Part shown: positions 3,707 through 34,433 of the stretch, in pieces | Numbering within the stretch: the first letter of the stretch is position 1 | Layout of the letters: the number at the start of each line of letters is the position of its first letter | Assembly (NCBI GenBank): GCA_964556655.1 | Contig: CAZKWY010000007.1 | Location: 1-34,570, forward strand | Length of the DNA stretch: 34,570 nt | From: an uncultured Candidatus Saccharibacteria bacterium | GTDB taxonomy: Bacteria; Patescibacteriota; Minisyncoccia; Portnoybacterales; UBA2143 | Direction: 5' to 3' | The notes under the pieces: generated by a model | Told to the model about the DNA's origin: nothing | What the model saw: only the letters and a program-made list of their open reading frames with translations | Databases searched by the model: none | Made by a program: the position numbers and the translations under genes

Positions 3707-3811
3707 TCTGTATGTGTATATGCATCCTTGTTTATAGGTTTACGTTTTTTTACGGTTCATGGGGGTTGATGTAAACATGTGACGGGTTTATGGGTTTATT
3801 AGTTTTATTAC

Positions 3812-3841: not shown

Positions 3842-5428
3842 ATGGATATGGTTGTGGATATGGTTGATATGCGGGACACTGGTTTCACTTATAAGGGTGA
3901 GCCAGTTGATCCATGTGGTTCTTTATATGATTTCAGTAGATACTGTTTTAATCAACCTCATGAGAATAAACCGTTTCACGTGGATTGGTATGAGACTATC
4001 GCGGATCACAACATTAAGAGTGGTTTAATTATTGCTCCACGTAACAGTACTAAGAGTACTTGTTGGGGTAGAGTAGCGCCCCTATGGTTACTCGGCTGTA
4101 ACCCAGACTTACGTGTCGTTTTAGTTAGCCGTACCAGTAGCCTCGCTCAGGATAATCTACGTTTCATTCGTTTACAGGTTGAGAGTAATGACAAGGTACG
4201 GGAAGTGTTTCCCTATGAAGAGGTTAACGGACGAGTATTCGGGTTAAAAGCTAGTAGTCCATGGGGTACTGAGAAATTGACTATTATGAATAACCGTAAC
4301 GATGGAGTTCCCTCAGTGTACGCGGTTGGGTTAGAGGGAAGCATTTCAGGTATAAGAGCCGATTTGATAATAGTTGATGACTTAATTGACATTAATAACG
4401 TTATGACTGAGGGGCAACGTGAGAAAGTTAACGATTTCTGGGATAGCGTGATTTTACCTACGCTTAACCCTGATGGACGCATATTCCTTGTAGGGACACG
4501 GTATCACGCTAAGGATTTCTATAACCGTATGCTTGAAGACCCTATGTATAAGGATAACTCATTCATGTTCCCAGCGTTAACAAACGAGAAAGGGGAGACA
4601 TGGTATGATGAAGAAGACACACCGATTAGTTATTGGCCTGAACGGTGGCCTGTTGAGAGACTTATCTCTATGAAGGAACGTATGGGTAGTCTAGCTTTTA
4701 ACAGTCAATATCAATGTGATCCATCTGGGTACGCTGGAACCGTGTTTAACCCCGAGGATTTAATGTTTTATGACCCTGAACGTGACTTATTACCTATATG
4801 GGGTGACCTAGACTTCGTTATGAGTGTTGACCCTAACGTCACTGAGAACCCTGAATCAGATAACACCGCTATTGTGACCGCTGCGGTGGATAGGCGTCGT
4901 AGCCAGATATTCATTCTTGACATATACGCGAAGCCACTGGGTTTCACTAATCAAGTTAAGAAGATAACTGAGTATGGGCGTCGTCGACAGGTGTCGGTTG
5001 GTGATCTTCGGTTTGACTCTGAGATACGTATCAGTAAGATTGGGGTTGAGGCTGTCGCGTATCAGCGGAGTCTTCAGCAGACGGGTTATATGCTTGGTTT
5101 ACCTGTGGTTGAGGTGCAGCAGGGTAATAAGAATAAGGAAGTGCGTATAGTTGGTGTTCAACCGCATTTTGAGAACGGGCGACTGCGTTTACCTAATCCC
5201 GATAAAATTAGTCTCCCATGGTATGATGCCTTCTATAAAGAGTACGTGAGTTTCCCGAAGGGGCGGCGGGATGATATGCTTGACGCGGTTGAGATTCTTG
5301 TCGGTATGGTGAGTGATAGCTTCGCTGTTTCAGGTATACCATGGGGTCCTAGTGATGGGGGTGCGTTGAATATGAGTCGCAGTCGTTCAGGGCGTGGTTT
5401 AGGTTTCTCGGGGGGTTTCAGGGGCTAA
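3842..5428 (+). CDS. terL: terminase large subunit
   Basis: 528 aa. P-loop-like GLIIAPRNSTKST, Walker B-like DLIIVDDLID, C-terminal nuclease-like region. Typical position upstream of the portal gene. Unusual Gly/Ser/Arg-rich C-terminal tail. Confidence 0.9.
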   Translation: MDMVVDMVDMRDTGFTYKGEPVDPCGSLYDFSRYCFNQPHENKPFHVDWYETIADHNIKSGLIIAPRNSTKSTCWGRVAPLWLLGCNPDLRVVLVSRTSSLAQDNLRFIRLQVESNDKVREVFPYEEVNGRVFGLKASSPWGTEKLTIMNNRNDGVPSVYAVGLEGSISGIRADLIIVDDLIDINNVMTEGQREKVNDFWDSVILPTLNPDGRIFLVGTRYHAKDFYNRMLEDPMYKDNSFMFPALTNEKGETWYDEEDTPISYWPERWPVERLISMKERMGSLAFNSQYQCDPSGYAGTVFNPEDLMFYDPERDLLPIWGDLDFVMSVDPNVTENPESDNTAIVTAAVDRRRSQIFILDIYAKPLGFTNQVKKITEYGRRRQVSVGDLRFDSEIRISKIGVEAVAYQRSLQQTGYMLGLPVVEVQQGNKNKEVRIVGVQPHFENGRLRLPNPDKISLPWYDAFYKEYVSFPKGRRDDMLDAVEILVGMVSDSFAVSGIPWGPSDGGALNMSRSRSGRGLGFSGGFRG

Positions 5429-6168: not shown

Positions 6169-7698
6169 ATGAGTGAAGAAGAGGGTAAAGGGGAAACAGG
6201 AGGTATAAGTAGAAGCATTAGAAGCGGTATCCCGGGGCTAGGTGACAGCGGTGGGGTTGCTTCTGATAGCTACACTAGTCGTGAAAGCTTTAAAGCTTTT
6301 AATCAACGTGGAAGATATATTGGAGCATATGAGGGATACGGTGCTAAGATACGTGACACGGATCGTTTATTCTATAGTACACGTGAACCGGTTGGAGTGT
6401 GGTGGGTTAAACACATCGCGTATGATATCTTTGATAACGGTTTCCACGTGGTTAACCCTGATGATGTGGATGATAAAACACTGGATAGAGACGTTCAGAG
6501 ACTATTTCATCAGTTAAAAGCGAAGCAGGCGCTTATACGTAGCACGGTTTTTGAGCGAAGATACGGTACAAGCATACTTGTGCATAGCTACACGGGGTTC
6601 GGTGATAACGTCGATTGGGGGACGCCTTTATTCGAGTTAGAGCCAGACGGCTCGTTCCCAGATAACCTTAACGCGGGGGAGCTTCTTCAGGTAACACCTT
6701 ACCCGTGGACATCAGTTAACGTTGATGAACTTGATCTAGATGAGTCAAGCATACGCTATGGTTTACCTTTATACTATAAGATACATATAGGTTCAGCTTC
6801 AAGCGACACAGTTGTACCGAGCGGTGAACAAGCGGATAACACAGTTAAGGTTCACTGGACTAGAGTCACGTTAGATAATCCACGACTAGATGAACACCCC
6901 TATGAAGGCATACCAGCGATAGACGCTATATTCGATGACTTAGTTGGCGGACGTAACGCACGGTGGGGAGCGTATGAATCCTATTACCGCCACGGAACAG
7001 GTTTCCCCGTGATAAAGACAAGGGGTACTCCTGAGCAGAACCGTGAATGGATAGAGAACGGTGGACTCAACGACTACGTGAATGTACGTGGATACTTCGT
7101 GTGTCACATAGATGAAGAGTTCAGCTTCGAGGGAGCACAAGGAAGGGCGCTTAACCCTAACACCTACTTCGACATGTACTACACGTTCATAGCGGCAGCC
7201 ACGGGGGTAGCGAAGGATAGTATACAAGGAGTGAGCGCGGGGCGAGTAACTGGTAGCGAGGTGAATGAGCGTCAATACTATAAATCTATCTCCTTGCTTC
7301 AGAACCAGAAAGAACCAGTGATTAGGGAACTAGTGGATAGACTCATACAGACGGGGCAAATAGAATACGAGGGCGACTACGTGATTGACTGGGTTGACCC
7401 CTTCGAGGTTAACCCACAAGATAAAGCCGCTATAGAGTTCATGGAGACACGTACAAGAGCGTTGCAGACATGGAAAACGTTTAACGAGTTAAGAGCAGAG
7501 GAGGGCTTAGAACCCATAGAAGGGGGTGACGTGTTAATGAGTCTACCGGGGCAGATGGCGCCGGGGGGCAGTGAGCCTGCTCCTAACCAAGAGGAGCCGG
7601 CGGCAACTAGTTCTGAGCCGGAGGAAGGTAGTCCTAGTGAATCAACGTTACTTGATAAGGTTCTCGGTAAAGCCTTGGATGCCTTGGGTAAGGAGTGA
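6169..7698 (+). CDS. portal protein
   Basis: 509 aa ORF immediately downstream of the terminase region, with an acidic Pro/Glu-rich C-terminus. Called from size and gene order. Confidence 0.6.
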   Translation: MSEEEGKGETGGISRSIRSGIPGLGDSGGVASDSYTSRESFKAFNQRGRYIGAYEGYGAKIRDTDRLFYSTREPVGVWWVKHIAYDIFDNGFHVVNPDDVDDKTLDRDVQRLFHQLKAKQALIRSTVFERRYGTSILVHSYTGFGDNVDWGTPLFELEPDGSFPDNLNAGELLQVTPYPWTSVNVDELDLDESSIRYGLPLYYKIHIGSASSDTVVPSGEQADNTVKVHWTRVTLDNPRLDEHPYEGIPAIDAIFDDLVGGRNARWGAYESYYRHGTGFPVIKTRGTPEQNREWIENGGLNDYVNVRGYFVCHIDEEFSFEGAQGRALNPNTYFDMYYTFIAAATGVAKDSIQGVSAGRVTGSEVNERQYYKSISLLQNQKEPVIRELVDRLIQTGQIEYEGDYVIDWVDPFEVNPQDKAAIEFMETRTRALQTWKTFNELRAEEGLEPIEGGDVLMSLPGQMAPGGSEPAPNQEEPAATSSEPEEGSPSESTLLDKVLGKALDALGKE

Positions 7699-7702
7699 GA
7701 CT

Positions 7703-8593
7703 ATGGGTGATTCATTTTATACCCTTGTTTGCCCGTTATGTGACGGAGAACGTTTTATAACTGATTTATATAACTGTGAAGAGGTTTGCGTAAACTGTGG
7801 ATACGTGTTGAATAACCCATCGGATAAGAGAATACCTGTGCATCTACGAGGATACGAGAAAAACTATGGAGGCGAGGTACGTGAGAGTGTACATGATAAG
7901 GGGCTTAGCACAACGTTTAACGTTGGACGAGACGCCGCGGGGGCTTCACTGGATAAGGAAACCATGAACCTTGTTTACCGTATGAGGAAACATAACCGTC
8001 GTAGTAAGATAAATGACAGCGTTCAACGTAACCTCAGCATAAGCCTCAGCGAGCTTGACCGTATGATAGGGGTGTTAAAGCTACCTGAGTACGTGAAAGA
8101 GGAAGCTGCTCATATCTACCGCACGGCTTTACATATGGATATGATACGTGGGCGTAGTATAGATGACTTTGTAGCGGCAGCGGTTTATATGGCGTGCCGT
8201 AAACTACGGGTAGCACGCACCCTACGAAGCATAGTGGATGCGAGTAAGGGATGCTATGAGGATGTGTCCCGTACTTATCGTTTAATGCTACGTGAACTAG
8301 ATATACGTCTCCCCGTGGATACTCCGGGAAAGTTTGTGGCTGATATAGCTAGTTACCTTGGTTTACCTAGATGGGTTGAAAGGGAGGCTGTTGAGACGTT
8401 ATCTACGGCTCGTAGTCGTCGTTTAACGGTTGGTAAAGACCCTAAAGGGGTTGCTGCTAGTGCTTTGTATTATATTTGTGTAAAGAACGGGGTGGATGTT
8501 GTGCAACGTGATCTTAGTGAGGCTTGTGGAGTGTCTGAGATTACTATAAGGAATCGTTACCGTGACCTAGTTGACGGGTTAGGTGAGGACTAG
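7703..8593 (+). CDS. tfb: transcription factor B (TFB/TFIIB) homolog
   Basis: The ATG at 7703 directly follows the portal stop; the track ORF starts at an upstream GTG at 7571 inside the portal gene. N-terminal Zn ribbon CPLCDGERFITDLYNCEEVCVNCG. Two cyclin-like repeats: LPEYVKEEAAHIYRTAL...RGRSIDDFVAAAVYMACR and LPRWVEREAVETLSTARSRRLTVGKDPKGVAASALYYICV...ITIRNRYRDL. Confidence 0.85.
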   Translation: MGDSFYTLVCPLCDGERFITDLYNCEEVCVNCGYVLNNPSDKRIPVHLRGYEKNYGGEVRESVHDKGLSTTFNVGRDAAGASLDKETMNLVYRMRKHNRRSKINDSVQRNLSISLSELDRMIGVLKLPEYVKEEAAHIYRTALHMDMIRGRSIDDFVAAAVYMACRKLRVARTLRSIVDASKGCYEDVSRTYRLMLRELDIRLPVDTPGKFVADIASYLGLPRWVEREAVETLSTARSRRLTVGKDPKGVAASALYYICVKNGVDVVQRDLSEACGVSEITIRNRYRDLVDGLGED

Positions 8594-8620: not shown

Positions 8621-8953
8621 ATGTTTATTAATCATTCTACGCTAACTAATATGAGGATACTTCACGTGTCAGATGCAGATTCAAGTATTAACTACCCGAC
8701 TGTAAACGAGTGTAAACTTATTCAGAGAAGCGTTGATAACCGTTTTTTATCCCTAGAACATGATATAATGGAGAATAAACGGGTTAACAGTAAACTATCT
8801 AAGATAATAATAGGGAACGGAGGGGTTGGACTCGTAGAGAAAGTGAATCTACTCTATCACCGTAACCAGTTGCTTTACCATTTTTTCGGGGTAATACAGT
8901 CAATAAGTGTTTCACTTATAATATTATACTTAACAGGAGTTTTAAAACTATGA
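8621..8953 (+). CDS. hypothetical protein
   Basis: 110 aa ORF with a hydrophobic C-terminus, between the TFB and protease genes. Confidence 0.3.
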   Translation: MFINHSTLTNMRILHVSDADSSINYPTVNECKLIQRSVDNRFLSLEHDIMENKRVNSKLSKIIIGNGGVGLVEKVNLLYHRNQLLYHFFGVIQSISVSLIILYLTGVLKL

Positions 8954-10326
8954 AGGATATGAAGGAAGGAAAAGATATGAAGATAATTTATCAGCAAGAC
9001 GAATACACGTTATCACCTGACAAGATAACAGAGTACACTCACCCCGTGTACGGGGAAGTCACCGTGTTCCATGACGTAGTGATAGCGTCAGAGATAGTTC
9101 AACAATACAGCGACGGATACGCTTATAAGCCAAGAGAAGAGTTACAGCAATACACGTGGACAGCCGACGGTAGATGGGTTACACTCCGTCAACACCCCCA
9201 AGAGGGAGTGATAAGCACCCGTGACCAAGTGTCAGGGCGCACTGTGAACCCCAGATACGTGAAGAACCTGAAAGACCATGAAACAGGGAGACCTAACAGA
9301 GCAGGCGTATTAGCTGACGTGGAGATATTTAACGAACGAACCACCCCTCAGGCGCTTAAAGACATGCGAGACGGTAAGAAACAGGATGTAAGCATAGGGT
9401 TCTTCTACACACATGACGCAACGAAGGGAGTAGTAAACGATGGACCGTTTAAGGGAAGAGAATACGATTACGTTCAACGAAACATGTTTCATGATCATCT
9501 TGCGGCTTGTATTGATAACGGTCGTTGCCCTATGCCTCTATGCGGGATTGGGGCTGACGAACTAGGGCGTAGGTTGACTGGTGATCCCTTCGCTGGGTTC
9601 GAGGGGTTTGATGGTTTCGTGGCTAAGATATTGGAGGAGAACAGTGATTTGAGTCGGGGGGACGCTGAGAAGATATGCGGTGAACTTAAATCAGAGCATG
9701 AGGATACATGTAGTGAGGACACATTGTTGAATGCTAAGGTACGTGAGTTAATAACGGTTCTCATGGATGAGTTGGAGGAAGTTAAAGGTATGAGAGACGC
9801 TGAACGGGAACATGAGTGGATTACGAGTATAGATTGGGGAGTTGAGCCTTTCACATCTATATACGGGAGACTAGCTGAGGATACTCGGTTGCAGATTAAG
9901 GAGCTTGGACTCTGCCCCACGTGTGAGGATTCTAAAGCAGTGGATATGTCGCTTGAAGAGATTAACTCTAAGATTAAGGAGCTACAAGATAGAAGAGACG
10001 AGTTACAGGAAAAAATAGATGAAATCTATGACGAAAACATGTCTAAAGAAGAGGAAGATCCTACTTCTGAGTTATGGGATGAGATAGAGAAACTTCGAGA
10101 TGAAATTGAGGTGCTTCTTCACGCTAAAGCTATTAAACTCGCGGAAGAGAAGTCTGAGGATAAATCAGATGAATCAGAGGAAACCGAGGATGAGTCTGAG
10201 GGAAAAGAGAAGTCTGATGAACCGTCTGAGGAATCTGAACCCGATGAGGATGTTAAGGATGAGGCGTCAGGGAAGAGGGTTGACGTGGATGCTTTGCTTG
10301 AGCGTGCTAATAGGGTTCTCGGATAA
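8950..10326 (+). CDS. prohead protease (HK97/S78-like) fused to an acidic coiled-coil scaffold-like domain
   Basis: 458 aa. N-terminal region with an HET...AGVLADVEI...DVSIGF pattern resembling the His/Ser motifs of HK97 gp4-type prohead proteases. C-terminal 150 aa is a strongly acidic coiled coil (KELQDRRDELQEKIDEIYDE..., ESEETEDESEG). Confidence 0.5.
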   Translation: MKDMKEGKDMKIIYQQDEYTLSPDKITEYTHPVYGEVTVFHDVVIASEIVQQYSDGYAYKPREELQQYTWTADGRWVTLRQHPQEGVISTRDQVSGRTVNPRYVKNLKDHETGRPNRAGVLADVEIFNERTTPQALKDMRDGKKQDVSIGFFYTHDATKGVVNDGPFKGREYDYVQRNMFHDHLAACIDNGRCPMPLCGIGADELGRRLTGDPFAGFEGFDGFVAKILEENSDLSRGDAEKICGELKSEHEDTCSEDTLLNAKVRELITVLMDELEEVKGMRDAEREHEWITSIDWGVEPFTSIYGRLAEDTRLQIKELGLCPTCEDSKAVDMSLEEINSKIKELQDRRDELQEKIDEIYDENMSKEEEDPTSELWDEIEKLRDEIEVLLHAKAIKLAEEKSEDKSDESEETEDESEGKEKSDEPSEESEPDEDVKDEASGKRVDVDALLERANRVLG

Positions 10327-10376
10327 CTTCTTCATTACCTAGTTTTTATTATAATTCACGTTAAACTAAGATTTTA

Positions 10377-10544
10377 TTAATCTTCTGAAACAGAAGAATA
10401 ATTTATTACATATCCCCACCTGTAGAAAGTCTGTTGTACATCTTCTAGTTTTTCTTGGAAATCCTTCACTTCATTTTTTGAGTTGAAAAAGAGTTCTATT
10501 GGGGGATTATCTTCTCTAGGTATATGTAACGTATAATTATACAT
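10377..10544 (-). CDS. hypothetical small protein (55 aa)
   Basis: Not in the track. ATG preceded by a perfect GGAGGTGA SD with 8-nt spacing. Last gene of the - strand cassette. Confidence 0.3.
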   Translation of the reverse strand: MYNYTLHIPREDNPPIELFFNSKNEVKDFQEKLEDVQQTFYRWGYVINYSSVSED

Positions 10545-10567
10545 TTATTCTTTCACCTCCATCATGT

Positions 10568-10789
10568 TCAGTCACTTATAAACCCAAATTCCTGTAAAGT
10601 TTCATATATATCATTCATCATAGCATAAGATGTTGTCGCTTGAAGTGAATCAGGGCAACCAAAACTTCTTAGCCATAGAAGCATTTTACCCAGAATAATT
10701 TCTTCAACCCCATTTAAGTCGTAGGATTCATCATAATAAGTTCTGCATAGTTCCATGAGTTCTTCGTTTGTTGCTTCCTCTCTTGGCAT
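10568..10789 (-). CDS. hypothetical small protein
   Basis: Track ORF 10568..10798 has a GTG start; the ATG is at 10789. Part of the - strand cassette. Confidence 0.35.
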   Translation of the reverse strand: MPREEATNEELMELCRTYYDESYDLNGVEEIILGKMLLWLRSFGCPDSLQATTSYAMMNDIYETLQEFGFISD

Positions 10790-10800
10790 TTTTTTCACCT

Positions 10801-10977
10801 TTTCAATTATTCGTCATATGGATTATACCAACCCATATCCTGTTTTATTCCCTCAAGAATCAACTTAATACAATCATGACATATCTCAGTTTTCTCGTTT
10901 CCTATCTGGTAAGTTTCTCGGTTTGCATGGTTTTTACCTATACAATATTTTCCAAGCATTATCATATCTATACTCAT
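10801..10977 (-). CDS. small Cys-containing (CxxC-like) protein, 58 aa
   Basis: Not in the track. Its ATG overlaps the stop of the upstream gene (TAATG). Contains C..H...CHDC. Confidence 0.3.
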
Positions 10978-11330
10978 TACTCTTCACCTGCATCACATTT
11001 CACGACCTGTCTTAGTCTGAAACCAATAACTTTTTCTCCATTCCACTGAACCATTATATCGTTTTTGTAATTTTCCTTAAGAATCTTTACACGCGCGTCT
11101 CTCTCTTGAAGATATTTACCTAGTTCTGATTCTGGTAGTAATTCTTCTATTGGTTTTGTATATCTATGTTTTTTGAGTTCTAATAACTCCTTTCGTTGCT
11201 CATCAGTTATACCAACATATCCAAATCGCCCATTATGTTTAATTAGACAAATTTGCCATAGTCCGCCGTTTGCAGTGTAATTCATATCCGAAAAAAGTTT
11301 GTATTCTTCTGGGTATGAAGTGTTACTCAA
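10977..11330 (-). CDS. hypothetical protein
   Basis: 117 aa ORF, tightly packed in the - strand operon. Confidence 0.4.
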   Translation of the reverse strand: MSNTSYPEEYKLFSDMNYTANGGLWQICLIKHNGRFGYVGITDEQRKELLELKKHRYTKPIEELLPESELGKYLQERDARVKILKENYKNDIMVQWNGEKVIGFRLRQVVKCDAGEE

Positions 11331-11661
11331 ATTGTTCTACCTCCGTTATTCTAGGATACCACTCAAACAACACCTTATCAGCGGTTATCCTATATCTTTG
11401 ATGTAACTCAAACGTGTGGTGTCCATAATAGGTTCTAGTGAAGTAATCAGCGTCCACTATGCTTGTTGGGTGTTCGATTGTAAACGTTACCTTTGTGTGT
11501 TCCCAAGGGAAGGATGCTTGTTCAACGTTAACAACGTATCCAACTACTTGGGTTTGCCCTAAATTACGTGTAACCCCCCAGAAGGGAAGAGAGAAAACAA
11601 CGAGAAACATAAAAATAAGCATGGTGTACATGCTCTTAATTATAATATCTAATTCATCCAT
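11323..11661 (-). CDS. membrane-anchored hypothetical protein
   Basis: 112 aa with an N-terminal hydrophobic helix (MLIFMFLVVFSLPFWGV) followed by a soluble domain. Confidence 0.4.
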   Translation of the reverse strand: MDELDIIIKSMYTMLIFMFLVVFSLPFWGVTRNLGQTQVVGYVVNVEQASFPWEHTKVTFTIEHPTSIVDADYFTRTYYGHHTFELHQRYRITADKVLFEWYPRITEVEQFE

Positions 11662-11861
11662 TATTCATCATCCTCTGTCAGTGTTTGCATAGAAACATCA
11701 TAGATTCGTATCTCCAAATCTTTTCTAAAGTTCCAGTAATCAACCTCCAACTCTAACCCAGTGTGGTTTATTATTCTAACATTCTCAAAATCAACTTTAC
11801 CTTCTCCTTTAACCCAAAAATTGTTGTTGATCGTGAACGTGGGGTGTAGCTTCTCTCTCAT
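11661..11861 (-). CDS. hypothetical small protein
   Basis: 66 aa. Its stop overlaps the start of the downstream gene. Confidence 0.35.
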   Translation of the reverse strand: MREKLHPTFTINNNFWVKGEGKVDFENVRIINHTGLELEVDYWNFRKDLEIRIYDVSMQTLTEDDE

Positions 11862-11929
11862 TTTATCATCTCTCTCAAAGTATCATTGATGGATATACTA
11901 TATAACAGTTTCTATAAAATGAAACCATG

Positions 11930-12208
11930 CTACGCTAAATGCTCAGCTATAATATACTTCACATCATTCACAGACAACCCGTAACGTTCAGCGATAAACT
12001 CGTAATCATCAAACTTATACCAATCCGCAACCACTCTCTCCTCAACATCATCATCACGTTGAAGCCAACGCATCTTAGAAGCATGATCAACTAGGAAAAG
12101 CTTGCTACATGCCATGCATTTAACGAAGTCCTTACCGTCTATGGTTACGATAATATAGTTAACTCCTCCACACGCTGGGCATTTAAATGATTCACTCATA
12201 GGACTCAA
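11930..12208 (-). CDS. Zn-ribbon plus HTH-like small regulator
   Basis: 92 aa. FKCPACGG...CMAC Zn-ribbon and C-terminal YEFIAERYGLSVNDVKYIIAEH helix-turn-helix-like segment. First gene of the - strand cassette, facing a divergent promoter region. Confidence 0.45.
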   Translation of the reverse strand: MSPMSESFKCPACGGVNYIIVTIDGKDFVKCMACSKLFLVDHASKMRWLQRDDDVEERVVADWYKFDDYEFIAERYGLSVNDVKYIIAEHLA

Positions 12209-12400
12209 AACATAATACGGGTATAAGTATAAAAACTATTTGCATAAAAACCCCGTGTTTACCCTTATAAATAACCAAGTTAATAAACTAGTGAAACCCG
12301 TGGGGGTATAAACCTTCAGGAGTCATCCTGACTAATATCATGTTCACTCAAGACAACTTGAGGGTGACTAATTTTATAGAGTTGAAGAGAGGACAGTAAC

Positions 12401-12829
12401 ATGTCTAAAGAAGAGAAAAATAATAAGGAAAATAAAGAAGAAAAAGGTAAAGACGAGAAACCTGAAACAATAGACGTTAACATGGCTCTCGTATTAGCCC
12501 AACTAGAGGAAGCACTAGACACAGTAGAGAAACTAGAAACCGAGCGAGATGAACTTAAGGAAGAAAACTATAAACTAAGGGAAAGAATAAACCAGGATAG
12601 CAAGAAAACAGTGATAAACGACATAGCACAGAAAACCACTCTCAGCAAGAAAATCTTAGCGGAGATGGATTTAAAGGAACTATTAAAGTACAAGAAAATC
12701 CTAGACACAGCAAAGACATCTAGCTTCAAATCAGCGACACCCCTAAAACTAGGGAAAGACGACCCGAGGGCAAAAGTAGAGTCTATGCACGATGATTACA
12801 TGCGTAAACTTAAAGGAGGACACAAGTAA
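12401..12829 (+). CDS. coiled-coil Lys/Glu-rich protein (scaffold-like)
   Basis: 142 aa highly charged alpha-helical sequence. ATG start preceded by GAGAGG. Position just upstream of the decoration and capsid genes. Confidence 0.45.
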   Translation: MSKEEKNNKENKEEKGKDEKPETIDVNMALVLAQLEEALDTVEKLETERDELKEENYKLRERINQDSKKTVINDIAQKTTLSKKILAEMDLKELLKYKKILDTAKTSSFKSATPLKLGKDDPRAKVESMHDDYMRKLKGGHK

Positions 12830-13318: not shown

Positions 13319-14212
13319 ATGAATATGAGAAGAGATCCATTTGCAGCAGACGTTGGAATACTAACAGAGGAAGAGCAGTCATACATTGAGACACGGGTGG
13401 TTGAAACCTATAGAGCACAGCTTAGAGCGCGTCAACTGTTTAACCTATTAAATATAGGTGACGATGGCGGCGAGAAGCTTTACAGGTTCTACACTGAAAC
13501 CGATCCTAGTGAAGCGATGATTGATATGCATGGAGTAGGGGCGAGCAATGATCTTCCTGAAAAGACAGCGAACGACATTGATCTACCTGTCATACATAAA
13601 GAGTTCTTCATACCTTGGCGTGACTTAGCGGCAAGTAGAAACGAGGGGCCGAGTCTTCTTGATGATAGTATAAGAACTTGCACTAGGAAAATAGCGGAGG
13701 CAGAGGATAAACTACTTATCACAGGTCAATACACTGGCTGGGATGCTCTCGAGTTAGAGGGCTTCTTCACAGCGACGGGTAGAACCGATAACGCTTCTGC
13801 TGGTGTATGGCCGGATAACGCTTATGAGGATATTAACACTGCTCGGGGTGCTTTGCAGGATTCAGGGTTTGACGACGTTGAACCTGTTCTTGTTGCGCCC
13901 CCTGCGTTAATTACTTCATTAGATGACTTGATTGCTAACACAGGTATTACTTATAAGCAGTCGTTTATGAGTAATGGTTTGCTTAGTGATATTATTCCAT
14001 CTAGTAACGCTTACGCGGCTGACGGGAATCAGGATAGCGCTGTGTTAGTTGTACCCGGTGGCGGGAACTTCTACGCGGTTGAGGCTTTACCTATTATGAC
14101 TAGGTTGTTTGAGGATAGGATGGGGAATGTTCACGGAACTGTTCGTGAGGTTGTTGCCCCTATTATAGCTAGACCAACTGCTATTGCTGAGATTAACACT
14201 ATTACGACTTAG
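13319..14212 (+). CDS. major capsid protein, HK97/encapsulin-like fold
   Basis: 297 aa. N-terminal LTEEEQSYIETRVVETYRAQLRARQLF and C-terminal GNFYAVEALPIMTRLFEDRMGNVHGTVREVVAPIIARP match the conserved pattern of encapsulin-type HK97-fold capsid proteins. AGAGGT SD. Confidence 0.8.
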   Translation: MNMRRDPFAADVGILTEEEQSYIETRVVETYRAQLRARQLFNLLNIGDDGGEKLYRFYTETDPSEAMIDMHGVGASNDLPEKTANDIDLPVIHKEFFIPWRDLAASRNEGPSLLDDSIRTCTRKIAEAEDKLLITGQYTGWDALELEGFFTATGRTDNASAGVWPDNAYEDINTARGALQDSGFDDVEPVLVAPPALITSLDDLIANTGITYKQSFMSNGLLSDIIPSSNAYAADGNQDSAVLVVPGGGNFYAVEALPIMTRLFEDRMGNVHGTVREVVAPIIARPTAIAEINTITT

Positions 14213-29214: not shown

Positions 29215-29997
29215 TTGAACACTTATACACTTTACCAAGGAGACTGCCTAGAAGTCTTACCTACACTTGAATCAGAGTCAGTAGACTTGGTTGTAACAAG
29301 CCCCCCGTATAATCTAGGTATGGATTATGAAAAAAAACTACTTGAAGAAAACTATTTCACCTTCATAGAACAAACCCTGAAAGAAATATATCGTGTGCTT
29401 AAACCAAGTGGACGTATATGTTGGAACATAATACACCAATGTCGTTGGGGGAAAGATGGTGACATATATCCAATGGCGAGGAAACACGCTAACAAACTAG
29501 AAGATGCGGGGTTCAGGTTTTTCGATCACCTAATATGGAACCAAGGTTACTCGGATTCAGCAACCGCGTGGGGGAGCTGGTTATCGCCTTCAGCACCATT
29601 TATACGACATAAAACAGAAGCTATTCTAGTTTTCTATAAAGACGAGTGGAAGTTAAGAGATAAAGGAGAAACGGATTTAACTAAGAAGGAGTTTATGAGT
29701 TGGACTAATAATGAGGTGTGGGAAATACAACCAGAGTCAGCTAAGAGGATAGGACACCCAGCTCCTTACCCAGAGGAATTTGTATATCGTTGCGTCAAGC
29801 TATTCAGTTACGTTGATTCAGTTATCCTCGATCCGTTTCTTGGTTCAGGTACTACTATGAAGGTATGCCAAGATAATAACCGTAGCTGTATAGGGATAGA
29901 AAAGTTTGAGGAATACATCCCCTTAATTAAGAAGAGGTGTTGGGGTAGACAATTCCTAGATAGACAAGTAGAATACAACTTTCACTCTTGTAAGTAA
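29215..29997 (+). CDS. beta-class N4-cytosine / N6-adenine DNA methyltransferase
   Basis: 260 aa. Motif IV DLVVTSPPY near the N-terminus and motif I ILDPFLGSGTT near the C-terminus (beta permutation). TTG start after AAGGTGA; no ATG upstream of the catalytic motif. Confidence 0.85.
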   Translation: MNTYTLYQGDCLEVLPTLESESVDLVVTSPPYNLGMDYEKKLLEENYFTFIEQTLKEIYRVLKPSGRICWNIIHQCRWGKDGDIYPMARKHANKLEDAGFRFFDHLIWNQGYSDSATAWGSWLSPSAPFIRHKTEAILVFYKDEWKLRDKGETDLTKKEFMSWTNNEVWEIQPESAKRIGHPAPYPEEFVYRCVKLFSYVDSVILDPFLGSGTTMKVCQDNNRSCIGIEKFEEYIPLIKKRCWGRQFLDRQVEYNFHSCK

Positions 29998-31892: not shown

Positions 31893-32108
31893 ATGATACC
31901 TATGAGTAAAAAACAGTCAATAAACGAGCTTATAGACGAGTATAACAAAGTAGACACAGAGATAAAAGAGAAATATAAAACAGAAGGCGGAGCATGGCTT
32001 GACACAGATGAATACACGGAGCTATACTTAGAGAAGATAAGGCTACGTGACCTTCTTATGACGCCTGAGCCTGCTCAGGATAAGGAGTGGGTGAACACGA
32101 AATGGTAG
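31893..32108 (+). CDS. hypothetical small protein
   Basis: 71 aa with an ATG start. Confidence 0.3.
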   Translation: MIPMSKKQSINELIDEYNKVDTEIKEKYKTEGGAWLDTDEYTELYLEKIRLRDLLMTPEPAQDKEWVNTKW

Positions 32109-32572
32109 ACAAGAATGATAATTCAATAACAAAGATGAAAACAGTTTACGCAGTTGGATGCGGATGCTATAGCGATTATCATATACGGTGCATATTTTCA
32201 ACACGCGAACTAGCAGAAAAATATGTAGAGATTATCAACTCAAAGGCAGAATATTCTATGGACAAATGTGAAGTCGAGGCATATGTGTTAGATGAACCAC
32301 AGGAAGAATGGGTTACAACAATGGTTCGTATGAAGAAAAACGGTGATGTAGCTAGTACTTGGGAAAGCTTTTACAGTGGAAAAGGGTTCGCTTGTTACGA
32401 TGTTGACAATAATCTAGTTTATGGTGTAGCTACAGAGAATAAAATAAAAGCAATAAAAGTTACAAACGAGATAAGAACTATTCTTCTTGCACATGGCGTG
32501 TTCGGGGATATGGCAAAAACTAGCGATTATCTTAGTTCACAATCAACAAATACAGAGGATACAGAGAAATGA
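32102..32572 (+). CDS. hypothetical protein
   Basis: ATG at 32102 after GGAGTG; the track ORF starts at a GTG at 32087. Contains GCGC. Confidence 0.35.
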   Translation: MVDKNDNSITKMKTVYAVGCGCYSDYHIRCIFSTRELAEKYVEIINSKAEYSMDKCEVEAYVLDEPQEEWVTTMVRMKKNGDVASTWESFYSGKGFACYDVDNNLVYGVATENKIKAIKVTNEIRTILLAHGVFGDMAKTSDYLSSQSTNTEDTEK

Positions 32573-33664: not shown

Positions 33665-33810
33665 TAGAGGATTATTATTGTTATGGTTGTGGATCAATCA
33701 ACCTTCGCTTTGATAGGGGGTTCCGAGTAGTCTGTCTTGATTGCGGAAGAGATTGGTATGAAATAAGAAAATCTATTCAAGATAAAATCTTATTTGAGGA
33801 AGAACAATGA
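33661..33810 (+). CDS. Zn-ribbon 49-aa protein
   Basis: Not in the track. CYGCG...CLDCG. ATGA overlaps on both sides. Confidence 0.3.
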   Translation: MIEDYYCYGCGSINLRFDRGFRVVCLDCGRDWYEIRKSIQDKILFEEEQ

Positions 33811-34433
33811 CTTGGAAAGTGCTTAACCTGTATTCGGGCATCGGGGGTAACCGTAAACTATGGACAGATGTGGATGTAACAGCAGTAGAGTTAGTTCCTG
33901 AGATAGCACAAGTTTACCAAGACTTCTTTCCAGAAGACGAAATTATAATAACAGATGCACATCAATTCCTATTAGAGAATTTCCAAGATTATGATTTTAT
34001 ATGGAGTTCGCCTCCATGCCCGACTCACTCACAAATAAGGTATAGATTAGGGGTGTTAAATGATTCAGCTGAACCTGTTTATCCAGATATGACTTTGTAT
34101 CAAGAGATAATATTTCTCCAATATCACGCTAAAGGAAAATGGGTTGTGGAAAACACTGAGCCATATTATGAACCACTAATAAAGCCACAAGTCTGTGGAA
34201 GGCATAGAGTGTGGACGAATTTCTTAGTTACTGAGTTTAAGGAAAGTGGTGCTGGAACTACAAGATGGGGGAGTTTACAGGACATGCAGAAGTTAAAGGG
34301 TTTTAACTTGGATAAATATAGTGGAGTAGATAAAAGAACAATGTTACGAAACTGTGTTAACCCAGAAACAGGTAAACATATATTGGATTGTGCTAGGGGT
34401 AATACTCAGAAAACCCTGTTTGAAGTATATTAG
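33807..34433 (+). CDS. short C5-cytosine DNA methyltransferase-like protein (paralog B)
   Basis: 208 aa. LYSGIGG, SSPPCPTHS, VVENT and ARGNTQ motifs. Clearly homologous to 235..843 over the full length. Confidence 0.55.
   Translation: MTWKVLNLYSGIGGNRKLWTDVDVTAVELVPEIAQVYQDFFPEDEIIITDAHQFLLENFQDYDFIWSSPPCPTHSQIRYRLGVLNDSAEPVYPDMTLYQEIIFLQYHAKGKWVVENTEPYYEPLIKPQVCGRHRVWTNFLVTEFKESGAGTTRWGSLQDMQKLKGFNLDKYSGVDKRTMLRNCVNPETGKHILDCARGNTQKTLFEVY

Follow-up and report, generated by a model that had tools for sequence, protein, structure and literature searches.

A reverse-oriented cassette of seven mini-genes in the head module of an uncultured archaeal virus is probably a hypervariable, moron-like accessory-gene island

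Introduction

The late structural operons of lambdoid and HK97-like tailed phages can carry morons (the concept of Juhala and Hendrix), which are extra genes lying between genes that are adjacent in relatives. Phage morons have their own promoter and a deviant base composition, and they are dispensable for virion assembly. Other known cases of hypervariable regions are the hyperplastic regions of T4-like phages and the shuffling of modules at boundary sequences in lambdoid phages. Neither morons nor hypervariable islands are new as concepts, and features of this kind are familiar.

The viruses that infect uncultured archaea of sediments have hardly been explored, and orphans make up most of their gene content. 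The 34,570-nt stretch of DNA analyzed here (the window) is a piece of the genome of an uncultured archaeal head-tailed virus, with the gene order terminase, portal, TFB, DUF2213 protease, cassette (c1 to c7), scaffold, and HK97 capsid. We conclude, with a probability of about 0.72, that the cassette is a hypervariable island of accessory genes, or a reverse-oriented “moron” with more than one gene, which occupies a lineage-specific hotspot of insertion with the protease gene on one side and the scaffold-capsid promoter and leader on the other, and that its products are likely to act early and on the host. The island is neither part of core morphogenesis nor a fixed seven-part system.

Results

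Seven genes tile the minus strand

A preliminary description of the window had placed seven minus-strand ORFs at 10377 to 12208, between a protease and a capsid gene. The flanking genes indeed encode a DUF2213 protease and an HK97/Linocin_M18 capsid protein, and, small corrections aside, all seven ORFs are present:

c1, 11930..12208, minus strand: 92 aa from TTG 12208; Zn-ribbon (CPAC...CMAC) and C-terminal three-helix HTH
c2, 11661..11861, minus strand: 66 aa, acidic, no Cys
c3, 11323..11661, minus strand: 112 aa; N-terminal membrane helix (residues 6 to 24) and an ~85-aa domain of unknown fold
c4, 10977..11330, minus strand: 117 aa from TTG 11330; GGAGGT 8 nt upstream
c5, 10807..10977, minus strand: 56-aa mini-protein; AGGTGA 6 nt upstream; deleted in allele D
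c6, 10568..10789, minus strand: 73 aa, very acidic (pI 4.1); AGGTGA 5 nt upstream; deleted in allele D
c7, 10377..10544, minus strand: 55 aa; GGAGGTGA 8 nt upstream

The end of c5 was corrected to 10807 from 10801, and c1 more likely starts at ATG 12199, the choice of the gene caller, which gives 89 aa. The TTG start of c4 is backed both by its GGAGGT motif and by homologues covering residues 9 to 113. For c6, we retained ATG 10789, as first described; the longer version starting at GTG 10798 lacks a motif of the AGGTGA type. The statement that most of the genes are joined by ATGA/TAATG overlaps was slightly overstated: overlaps occur at three of the six junctions (TAATG in c2/c3 and in c4/c5, 8 nt in c3/c4), and gaps of 68, 17, and 23 nt separate the genes at the remaining three.

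No homologues were found for six of the seven proteins, the single point in favor of regarding the ORFs as chance open frames within an AT-rich noncoding spacer. However, ORFs of at least 55 aa tile 94.6% of one strand between 10377 and 12208, far above the same tiling in 1,000 dinucleotide shuffles (mean, 23.4%; standard deviation, 12.5%; maximum, 76%), and Shine-Dalgarno (SD) motifs of at least six bases at the correct spacing precede four of the six internal genes, versus a background of 2.8%. Moreover, an independent gene caller predicted all seven, c4 is conserved across metagenomes, and insertions and deletions among strains keep to gene boundaries, all of which makes chance frames extremely unlikely.

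The cassette proteins are orphans

No cassette protein matched the Pfam, PHROG, or PADLOC libraries at threshold, no toxin or defense domain was found with Pfam and PADLOC, and no homologue of c1 to c7 was found in 137 related loci (1.07 Mb) or in 50,697 phage genomes. The view that none of the proteins belongs to a recognizable family was thus borne out, the Pfam, PHROG, PADLOC, and PDB searches being empty or subthreshold. Very large libraries were searched one protein at a time for c1 (by word index) and c4 (exhaustively), whereas for c2, c3, and c5 to c7 the search consisted of exact-cluster look-up and of comparisons with profile libraries, with the local relatives, and with the phage genome set; distant homologues of these five may therefore be missed.

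For c4, exhaustive HMMER searching of 1.84 billion representatives returned only its own cluster and two proteins, P0135 (51% identity) and P0136 (45% identity), both encoded on ~1-kb contigs amid same-strand mini-genes. It is the sole cassette protein with homologues found elsewhere (in two other metagenomes); a query of IMG/VR with the three-sequence alignment gave no homologues. PDB sequence matches that would make c4 a Nudix ADP-ribose pyrophosphatase were not significant (E, 0.04 to 0.06), no Nudix box could be seen by eye, and we rejected that assignment. The AF2 single-sequence model of c4 (pLDDT, 45) was unusable.

The first gene had been described as encoding a Zn-ribbon plus HTH regulator, and several lines of evidence agree with that domain assignment. 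Pfam gave Zn-ribbon and HTH_36 matches, both subthreshold (HTH_36 E, 0.13), the HTH resembles the CAP HTH of PDB chain 8vd6 (9e-5), and the AF2 single-sequence model (pLDDT, 76.8) has a three-stranded ribbon followed by three helices. Foldseek gave domain-level matches only, to the ribbons of aIF2-beta, Rpb9, and TFIIB and to the HTH domains of LuxR and Mor, none with an E of <0.1; likewise, fold searches of the PDB and BFVD gave Zn-ribbon and HTH matches at the domain level alone, none significant. A word-indexed search of 5.8 billion proteins returned only c1 itself. No SD motif was found upstream of c1, which is probably a DNA-binding regulator read from a leaderless mRNA.

A membrane-anchored protein had also been claimed, and c3 fits this claim through its predicted N-terminal helix (Kyte-Doolittle 19-residue maximum, 2.14); c3 matched nothing in Pfam, PHROG, PADLOC, or the PDB. 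Residues C12, H17, and C33-H-D-C36 of c5 may form a metal site.

These properties of c1 and c3 bear on whether the cassette is a toxin-antitoxin, abortive-infection, or superinfection-exclusion unit, with c1, for instance, as an MqsA-like antitoxin and c3 as a membrane effector. The modeled domain order of c1 (Zn-binding N terminus and HTH C terminus) recalls that of MqsA, c3 has its membrane anchor, and there is a weak Foldseek match to a mycobacteriophage “antitoxin” (E, 0.045; probability, 0.66). However, neither Pfam nor PADLOC gave a toxin, antitoxin, or defense match, c2 to c7 included, the 68 nt between c1 and c2 contrast with the tight coupling usual in toxin-antitoxin pairs, and the single-gene variation among strains described below does not suit an obligate multipart system. 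We consider such a unit very unlikely.

Promoters, boundaries, and leader

Several elements flank or punctuate the cassette, the first two of which were read from the sequence:

12228..12235, minus strand: TATA-like box TTTTTATA, 29 nt upstream of the c1 ATG
11893..11919, minus strand: two TATA-like elements, TTTTATAG and TTATATAG, in the 68-nt c1-c2 spacer
10339..10361, no strand assigned: left boundary of variability, T-run/TATA-like CTAGTTTTTATTATAATTCACG, directly past the protease stop
12265-12272, plus strand: right boundary, scaffold-capsid promoter TTATAAAT (consensus only), outside the cassette
within 12265..12400, plus strand: structured leader of ~105 nt (H0, 12296-12307; H1, 12316-12331; H2, 12344-12367)

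The box TTTTTATA is predicted to be the cassette promoter, placed back to back with the scaffold promoter; a motif of the TTTTTAT type also precedes TerL and other first genes. The elements TTTTATAG and TTATATAG are a possible internal promoter for c2 to c7. At the left boundary, sibling alleles are identical to 10364-10368 and diverge beyond, and CTAGTTTTTATTATAATTCACG probably serves the protease operon as its oligo-T terminator. No clear oligo-T terminator was found 3' of c7. Scans for sigma-70-type promoters and hairpins are uninformative for archaea.

A 22-nt inverted repeat with 77% identity (10340-10361 versus 12217-12238) was considered as a pair of mobile-element ends and rejected, as it is at about chance level and absent in relatives and its arms are generic TATA/T-run motifs of the kind also found at TerL. 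It is best explained as two such motifs.

The leader RNA that precedes the scaffold gene, with its hairpins, is kept in 27 relatives, with compensatory changes, and had no match in Rfam.

The arrangement at the right boundary raises the possibility of a regulatory switch, in which c1, divergent from the scaffold-capsid promoter, would repress or time the late genes (in a lysogeny-like or early/late manner) and the downstream genes would be passengers. In keeping with this, the two TATA boxes lie back to back ~30 bp apart, c1 is a Zn-ribbon and HTH protein, and its predicted leaderless message is typical of first genes and regulators. However, relatives without the cassette, or with unrelated first genes, also conserve the late promoter and leader, so c1 is not essential to late control. 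Furthermore, no relative was found to have a c1 homologue and no integrase was seen in the window. A switch of this kind is unlikely.

Related viruses carry other genes or none at the same site

A single capsid query of IMG/VR found no match, and neither DNA nor capsid-protein queries matched any of 50,697 phage records, so that the clade is absent from the searched collection of deposited phage genomes. The viral TFB is most similar to that of a Nezhaarchaeales MAG, but at 37% identity the match is inconclusive, and we dropped it as a means of host assignment. Searches of the literature on DUF7336 and on TFB-encoding tailed archaeal viruses found nothing relevant.

The comparison covered 56 related loci that hold both the protease and the scaffold gene. 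The protease-scaffold gap, which is 2,074 nt in the window, is 23 to 204 nt in the distant relatives (capsid 32 to 45% identical), with L046 and L054 as the two exceptions. In the closer clade (capsid identity of 50% or more; TFB encoded by several members), gaps of 171 to 2,408 nt hold from 0 to ~8 genes, mostly low-GC mini-genes on the reverse strand, none of which resembles c1 to c7; one member (L013) has a 407-nt gap with no called gene. L007, another relative, has at this site a gene whose homologue lies within the RadA-MCM replication block of a further relative, L010.

The suggestion that the cassette is an accessory, moron-like island is therefore upheld, since the site is gene free in all but two distant relatives and holds unrelated genes in close ones. 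By the same evidence, it is scarcely conceivable that the genes encode core morphogenesis helpers, such as chaperones or scaffold accessory proteins, on the opposite strand. Such helpers would fit the position within the head module, and nothing else; against them stand their absence from all but two distant relatives, the unrelated genes or empty site of close ones (L013, for example), gene content that varies among co-occurring strains, and the lack of conserved synteny, no homologue having been found in the 137 loci (1.07 Mb).

The cassette is AT-richer than the flanking structural genes, as the preliminary description had noted (GC, 0.358 versus 0.459 and 0.451), and in every relative with an insert at the site the GC content of the gap is below that of its own flanks. 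As a sign of separate acquisition, however, low GC is weak: the virus's own mini-gene clusters at 27.2 to 29.2 kb (GC, 0.343) and 31.4 to 34.4 kb (GC, 0.364) share this composition, and the GC3 of c1 to c3 (0.40 to 0.42) is core-like. We accordingly rejected low GC as proof of a foreign origin. Given this core-like GC3 and the absence of strain variation in c3, some of the island may be older and have an important function in the lineage.

Sibling alleles differ by whole genes

Seven sibling sequencing runs gave at least five alleles of the cassette, with flanks 99.8 to 100% identical, and the differences between alleles are insertions, deletions, and swaps of whole genes. Allele B has an extra 92-aa gene. 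In this allele, the neighboring gene supplies the last nine residues of c2, which therefore spans a deletion junction. In alleles C and D, c7 is replaced by a 133-aa DUF7336 gene, and allele D also lacks c5 and c6; allele E has a different promoter-distal end, with other genes in place of c7. The c3 gene is identical across all sibling contigs (it is present in seven). The junctions between alleles lie in a 13-nt overlap and, at the 3' ends of genes, in a repeat of ~50 nt with 88% similarity, and the comparison shows that single genes are inserted, deleted, and swapped, mostly promoter distally, by recombination at short similar gene-boundary sequences.

The idea that the seven genes form one coherent “undescribed system” does not survive this comparison, in which single genes come and go between alleles that are otherwise 99.8 to 100% identical; no fixed gene set is inherited as a unit. 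The moron-like, hypervariable island is instead indicated, because relatives hold other genes or none and the alleles, at least five in number, differ by whole genes.

Rapid turnover between strains and the location at a hotspot would also suit an anti-defense locus, in which small acidic orphans inhibit host CRISPR or restriction and c1 is an HTH autorepressor in the manner of acr-aca. Such a locus would account for the presence of small, mostly acidic orphans (pI 4.1 to 5.2 for six of the seven proteins) next to an HTH gene. However, acidity is unspecific, since the whole proteome of the virus is acidic, and none of the proteins resembles any library family. Aca genes are conserved across elements, whereas c1 is an orphan that matches no known regulator family at threshold (its HTH_36 match is subthreshold, and no homologue was found among 5.8 billion proteins), and it is first in the operon rather than last. 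We regard this specific function as possible but doubtful.

Discussion

A moron-like island would work as follows. A minus-strand transcript would be driven by the TATA box (12228-12235) that adjoins the late scaffold promoter back to back, and c1, the likely regulator of the unit, would be read first from a leaderless or near-leaderless message. The genes c2 to c7 would be translated from a polycistronic RNA shared with c1, or from one arising at an internal promoter in the c1-c2 spacer, through SD motifs lying within the acidic 3' end of each preceding gene and through stop/start overlaps. Cassette transcription would converge on the protease operon across a 50-nt spacer (10327-10376). The products would be orphan proteins that are small, mostly acidic, and independent of one another, plus one protein anchored in the membrane; their most likely role is an early one directed at the host (takeover, counter-defense, or exclusion of rival viruses) and not one in virion assembly. 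The island is linked to the nonstructural gene pool by the DUF7336 swap-in gene, which has a paralogue at 32087-32572 of the window, by the homologue shared between L007 and L010, and by a composition like that of the other mini-gene clusters. Relatives and alleles that lack individual genes suggest that the cassette genes are dispensable for assembly.

A further-reaching reading, which we put forward only tentatively and consider improbable, is that an undescribed clade of archaeal viruses has in the island a locus dedicated to counter-defense or host takeover, made up entirely of new protein families under the control of c1 as a new Zn-ribbon-HTH regulator and renewed through the hotspot, with the protease terminator and structured late leader as its bounds. 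The island would then be the archaeal counterpart of acr-aca or of an “anti-defense island.” As a hypervariable island, the locus is a hotspot with exact bounds, used by a whole virus clade to store small genes that evolve fast, and natural alleles of it co-occur at one site; for these reasons, it is a practical place to seek archaeal anti-defense and host-takeover proteins. It also allows the study of gene-cassette exchange at short boundary repeats.

Among known systems, the cassette has points in common with acr-aca loci and MqsA-type antitoxins. As in acr-aca loci, very small orphans accompany an HTH DNA-binding gene and turnover is high; unlike in those loci, c1 is first and not last, is an orphan instead of belonging to a conserved marker family, and has an extra Zn-ribbon, and there is no anti-CRISPR homology. 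With MqsA, c1 shares the order of its two domains, a Zn-binding N terminus and an HTH, but it has neither a sequence or profile match nor an MqsR-like partner and is much shorter (89 to 92 aa).

Hyperplastic regions and module shuffling offer another likeness: there is a fixed hotspot, each relative has different small orphans, exchange occurs at short boundary sequences, and strains differ. Unlike those regions, the cassette lies inside the head module, directly upstream of a conserved structured leader RNA, and it belongs to an undescribed clade of archaeal viruses, several of which encode TFB. Finally, the cassette resembles morons in sitting between genes that are adjacent in relatives (2,074 nt versus at most 204 nt in all but two distant relatives) and in differing from its flanks in composition, though in this it equals the other mini-gene clusters of the virus. 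It departs from them in being a seven-gene operon rather than one gene and in being reversed, in an archaeal virus, with predicted TATA/leaderless and SD-coupled expression.

Seven reverse-strand genes within the head module

The window belongs to an archaeal head-tailed virus, and the cassette, seven minus-strand mini-genes named c1 (first, right end) to c7 (left end), lies within its head genes as follows.

Gene order around the cassette
3842-5428, large terminase
6169-7698, portal
about 7700-8593, +, TFIIB/TFB homologue (PF00382, 5.8e-35)
between the TFB and protease genes, 110-aa gene
8950-10326, DUF2213 prohead protease with a long acidic tail
10377-12208, -, cassette c1-c7, after the protease gene and before the scaffold-like gene
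12401-12829, coiled-coil scaffold-like gene
between the scaffold-like and capsid genes, 160-aa gene
13319-14212, HK97/Linocin_M18 capsid protein
after the capsid gene, cement-like gene

Searches of 50,697 deposited phage genomes with the window DNA and with the capsid protein gave no match; in a protein collection from public genomes and metagenomes, 162 relatives of the capsid protein were found at E<=1e-5. The TFB, only 30-37% identical to cellular TFBs, is a full homologue (Zn-ribbon and two cyclin repeats) lying inside the head module between portal and protease. A TFB gene holds the equivalent place in several close relatives (loci L007, 1149-2054; L008, 5659-6606; L013, 5804-6754; L077, 2171-3118) and is absent from L015, L010 and the distant clade. 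The window also carries three DNA methyltransferase genes or fragments (235-843, -; 29215-29997, +; 33807-34433, +), two of them short N-terminal pieces of C5-cytosine methylases (~200 aa) and the third a complete N6/N4 methylase (PF01555 at 1e-44), which suggests self-protection against host restriction.

All seven open reading frames (ORFs) are present as the preliminary description listed them, with minor corrections (c5 ends at 10807, and c1 probably starts at ATG 12199), and independent gene calling on the source contig (Logan SRR7048225_56066, 59,160 bp) found them all. Three of the six junctions overlap (TAATG twice, 8 nt once) and three are gaps, of 17, 23 and 68 nt, so that overlaps join fewer of the genes than had been thought. 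On one strand, 94.6% of 10377-12208 is covered by ORFs of 55 aa or more, compared with a mean of 23.4% (sd 12.5%, maximum 76%) in 1000 dinucleotide-preserving shuffles. Promoters and Shine-Dalgarno (SD) motifs were read at the level of consensus, the latter as complementarity to the canonical archaeal 16S 3' end.

Predicted expression signals
12228-12235, TTTTTATA box, predicted c1 promoter, 29 nt upstream of the c1 ATG
12265-12272, TTATAAAT box of the scaffold operon, back to back with the c1 box
c2, weaker SD, GAGaTGAT type
c3, weaker SD, GAGGaTGAT type
c4 (TTG 11330), SD GGAGGT, 8 nt to start
c5, SD AGGTGA, 6 nt to start
c6 (ATG 10789), SD AGGTGA, 5 nt to start
c7, SD GGAGGTGA, 8 nt to start

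At the correct spacing, SD matches of at least five bases have a background rate of 2.8%. That the cassette consists of chance ORFs is contradicted by these statistics and by the tiling, and we give that idea almost no credence. The SD motifs lie within the 3' ends of the upstream genes, which we take to be the reason why Asp or Glu is the last residue of six of the seven proteins. The c1 gene lacks such a motif and, with its box, would be arranged as leaderless first genes of archaea usually are; two more TATA-like elements lie in the 68-nt spacer between c1 and c2 and may give c2-c7 a promoter of their own as well. A TAGTTTT(T)AT[AT]A motif occurs at both cassette borders as an inverted pair (22 nt, 77%; 10339-10361, +, and 12217-12238, -) and once more 5' of TerL (about 3790-3810). 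The simplest reading is a TATA-box or oligo-T terminator motif, and the plus-strand copy, 3' of the protease stop, could fire antisense into the cassette.

As first described, the cassette is AT-richer than its flanks (GC 0.358, versus 0.459 for the protease gene and 0.451 for the scaffold-to-capsid stretch). GC3 is 0.25-0.30 in c4-c7 and a structural-gene-like 0.40-0.42 in c1-c3, and the island looks layered in age. However, the virus's other mini-gene clusters are equally poor in GC (27.2-29.2 kb, 0.343; 31.4-34.4 kb, 0.364), some of their genes having comparably low GC3 (0.23-0.35). Low GC is therefore a mark of the virus's small non-structural genes generally and is weak evidence for foreign origin.

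The same site in related viruses

Protease and scaffold homologues were both located at 56 loci around capsid homologues. Where the capsid is 32-45% identical, the protease-to-scaffold gap is at most 204 nt, save in L046 and L054, distant relatives that have independent inserts. It ranges from 171 to 2408 nt in the closer clade, where capsid identity is 50% or more and several members have TFB beside portal.

Protease-to-scaffold gaps in the closer clade
L010-L012, L070, L096: 171-184 nt, no genes
L013, L014: 407 nt, none called
L015, L016: 679 nt, 2 genes
L076: 772 nt, none clear
L008, L009, L062: 956 nt, 3 genes
window: 2074 nt, 7 genes
L077: 2311 nt, about 6 genes
L007: 2408 nt, 7-8 genes

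The inserted genes are mostly on the reverse strand, GC in the gap is below that of the flanks in every case, and in L093 reverse-strand mini-genes occupy at least 4.4 kb 5' of the scaffold gene. Searches with phmmer and jackhmmer over 1.07 Mb found no homologue of c1-c7 among the relatives' inserted genes. One L007 cassette gene recurs at the equivalent position in L093, and another has a homologue within the RadA-MCM replication block of L010. From this comparison we infer a derived hotspot for insertions that draws on the non-structural gene pool, and not a conserved morphogenesis feature. Homologues serving as core morphogenesis genes, which the preliminary description had named as one finding that would speak against its reading, did not appear in these loci, the site being empty or otherwise filled; that the cassette genes are morphogenesis helpers is thus contradicted and hardly credible.

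Close relatives have a large glycosyltransferase/methyltransferase/polysaccharide deacetylase/radical-SAM block downstream of their head genes (L007, 10155-17330; L008, 14660-20891; L010, 12945-17029; L013, 15794-20377), and some also have RadA and MCM genes and NUMOD3 homing-endonuclease-like genes beside the capsid gene. The window showed none of these at the corresponding place.

Strain alleles of the cassette

In their shared parts, the contigs of seven sibling runs match the window at 99.8-100% identity; they differ by whole genes.

Cassette alleles
A (SRR7048225, the window; SRR7048224): c1 to c7
B (SRR7048228, SRR7048220): additional 92-aa gene between c2 and c3
C (SRR7048219): ~270 nt and a 133-aa DUF7336 gene in place of c7
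D (SRR7048218): both the 92-aa and DUF7336 genes, without c5 and c6
E (SRR7048227): matches the window as far as 10368, with unrelated reverse genes beyond

The A/B junction falls in an ~50-nt repeat (88% identical) that c2 and the 92-aa gene share at their 3' ends, and consequently c2 of the window carries the last nine residues of the 92-aa gene; the allele D deletion used a 13-nt overlap. Variability sets in at 10364-10368, directly after the T-run motif 3' of the protease stop.

DUF7336 has two copies in the virus population, one at 32087-32572 (+) in the 31-34 kb mini-gene cluster and one at L003 1445-1846, the alternative last cassette gene of alleles C and D. The paralogues match at 1e-9 (phmmer) and hit Pfam PF24024 at 1e-5 and 3e-5; their presence in both accessory regions shows gene traffic between cluster and cassette. 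The acidic, coiled-coil, scaffold-like C-terminal part of the protease is itself polymorphic (window 9929-10176, +, versus L138 2717-2818): in the L138 sibling, ~250 nt are swapped for a shorter, unrelated, Cys-containing acidic segment (410 versus 458 aa), with flanks 99.8-100% identical.

We consider it about 70% probable that the cassette is a moron-like accessory island of several genes in reverse orientation, located at a hotspot and evolving via recombination at boundary sequences. The hotspot would be bounded by the protease terminator on one side and the late-operon promoter and leader on the other, and the island would be transcribed on its own. Its orientation, its small orphan proteins and its links to the replication/early gene pool suggest early, host-directed roles for the products. 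The proposal that the cassette is a single undescribed system is not supported, as single genes turn over between strains and no fixed multi-part set was found. The same turnover, with the lack of toxin domains, makes a toxin-antitoxin, abortive-infection or exclusion unit improbable.

Cassette proteins

No cassette protein had a convincing or curated-cut-off match in Pfam, PHROG or PADLOC, in keeping with the earlier statement that none has a recognisable family; the best library matches were sub-threshold, of Zn-ribbon families to c1. In Pfam, c1 hit only those families and HTH_36 below threshold. The Zn-ribbon and HTH originally assigned to it are borne out by CPAC...CMAC, a C-terminal HTH matching a CAP-derived PDB chain (9e-5) and an AF2 single-sequence model (pLDDT 76.8) with a three-stranded ribbon, a disordered linker and a three-helix bundle (pLDDT around 90). 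With Foldseek, the whole model found nothing at E<0.1 in PDB or E<0.005 in BFVD, and the matches, at domain level only, were to aIF2-beta/Rpb9/TFIIB ribbons and LuxR/Mor/AsnC HTH domains. An anti-defence locus with c1 as an Aca-like regulator would be a more specific version of the accessory-island reading, for which no homology turned up, and we regard it as possible but doubtful.

The predicted membrane anchor is c3 (hydrophobic helix, residues 6-24, Kyte-Doolittle 2.14); c5 has the pattern C..H...CHDC, and c6 is strongly acidic (pI 4.1). The seven proteins had no tblastn match in the 50,697 phage genomes. By exact look-up among ~15 billion proteins grouped at 90% identity, six of the seven fell in clusters of 1-3 members, and all contigs retrieved came from one set of sibling runs; the exact 92-aa c1 was absent. 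Individual searches of very large libraries covered c1 and c4: a word-indexed search of 5.8 billion proteins returned only c1's own 89-aa form, and an exhaustive search of 1.84 billion representatives just two distant c4 homologues (51% and 45% identity). Both are on ~1-kb contigs amid same-strand mini-genes, and the metagenome of one also contains a related virus; the AF2 single-sequence model of c4 was unusable (pLDDT 45). The gene next to the c4 homologue P0135 on its 1.1-kb contig (L136, 485-649 for this next gene) encodes a 54-aa Cys/His mini-protein whose spacing (GKY.C, about 19-20 aa, IC..[CH]) recalls c5 (window 10807-10977) by eye only, the likeness being significant in no search; this hints at a conserved c4-c5 pair.

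A structured leader RNA of the scaffold-capsid operon

Most of the 192-nt "intergenic" stretch on the right-hand side of c1 is taken up by a leader of the scaffold-capsid operon that is conserved and structured.

Leader elements
12265-12400, +, leader, TATA box then hairpins
12296-12307, hairpin H0, GUGG or GUGA loop
12316-12331, hairpin H1, UUC-stem-GUCA-stem-GACUAA
12344-12367, hairpin H2, UUCAC-stem-loop-stem-GUGACUAA, mostly GNRA-like loop
relatives, for example: L007 5854-5993; L013 8985-9124

The leader comprises two to three hairpins in which certain bases are conserved (UUC...GACUAA) and the stems covary freely. The six sequences aligned across its TATA box all keep that box. H1 (5-7 bp) and H2 (5-8 bp) form in 27 of 27 relatives, with 20 and 21 distinct hairpin sequences. 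In the condensed arm alignment, for which H1 arms were chosen by a pairing-favouring procedure and H2 arms anchored solely by conserved flanking motifs, 99.6% of cells pair. Changes on both sides occur in 60 cells, versus 21±3 in shuffles (observed value reached in 0 of 500), and the covariation score is 0.648, versus 0.144 in shuffles and at most 0.115 with slid partner columns. Occasional U-G pairs indicate plus-strand RNA. The motif is unique within the window and had no match in Rfam; more distant relatives have similar hairpin repeats in the protease-scaffold spacer. The leader is a candidate for a new cis-regulatory RNA or protein-binding site controlling capsid-gene expression. It could be supposed that c1 is a switch for this late promoter, but promoter and leader are conserved without c1, and we think this rather unlikely.

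Comparison with known systems

The cassette falls outside the known Aca families and the known toxin-antitoxin families. In the way it works it resembles a phage moron or hyperplastic region; its position and composition agree with the original designation as a moron or accessory island, and its genes do not behave as core genes. It is made up of orphan proteins and belongs to an undescribed archaeal virus clade; as a concept it is ordinary. What makes it worth searching further is its natural series of alleles and the sharp bounds of the hotspot.
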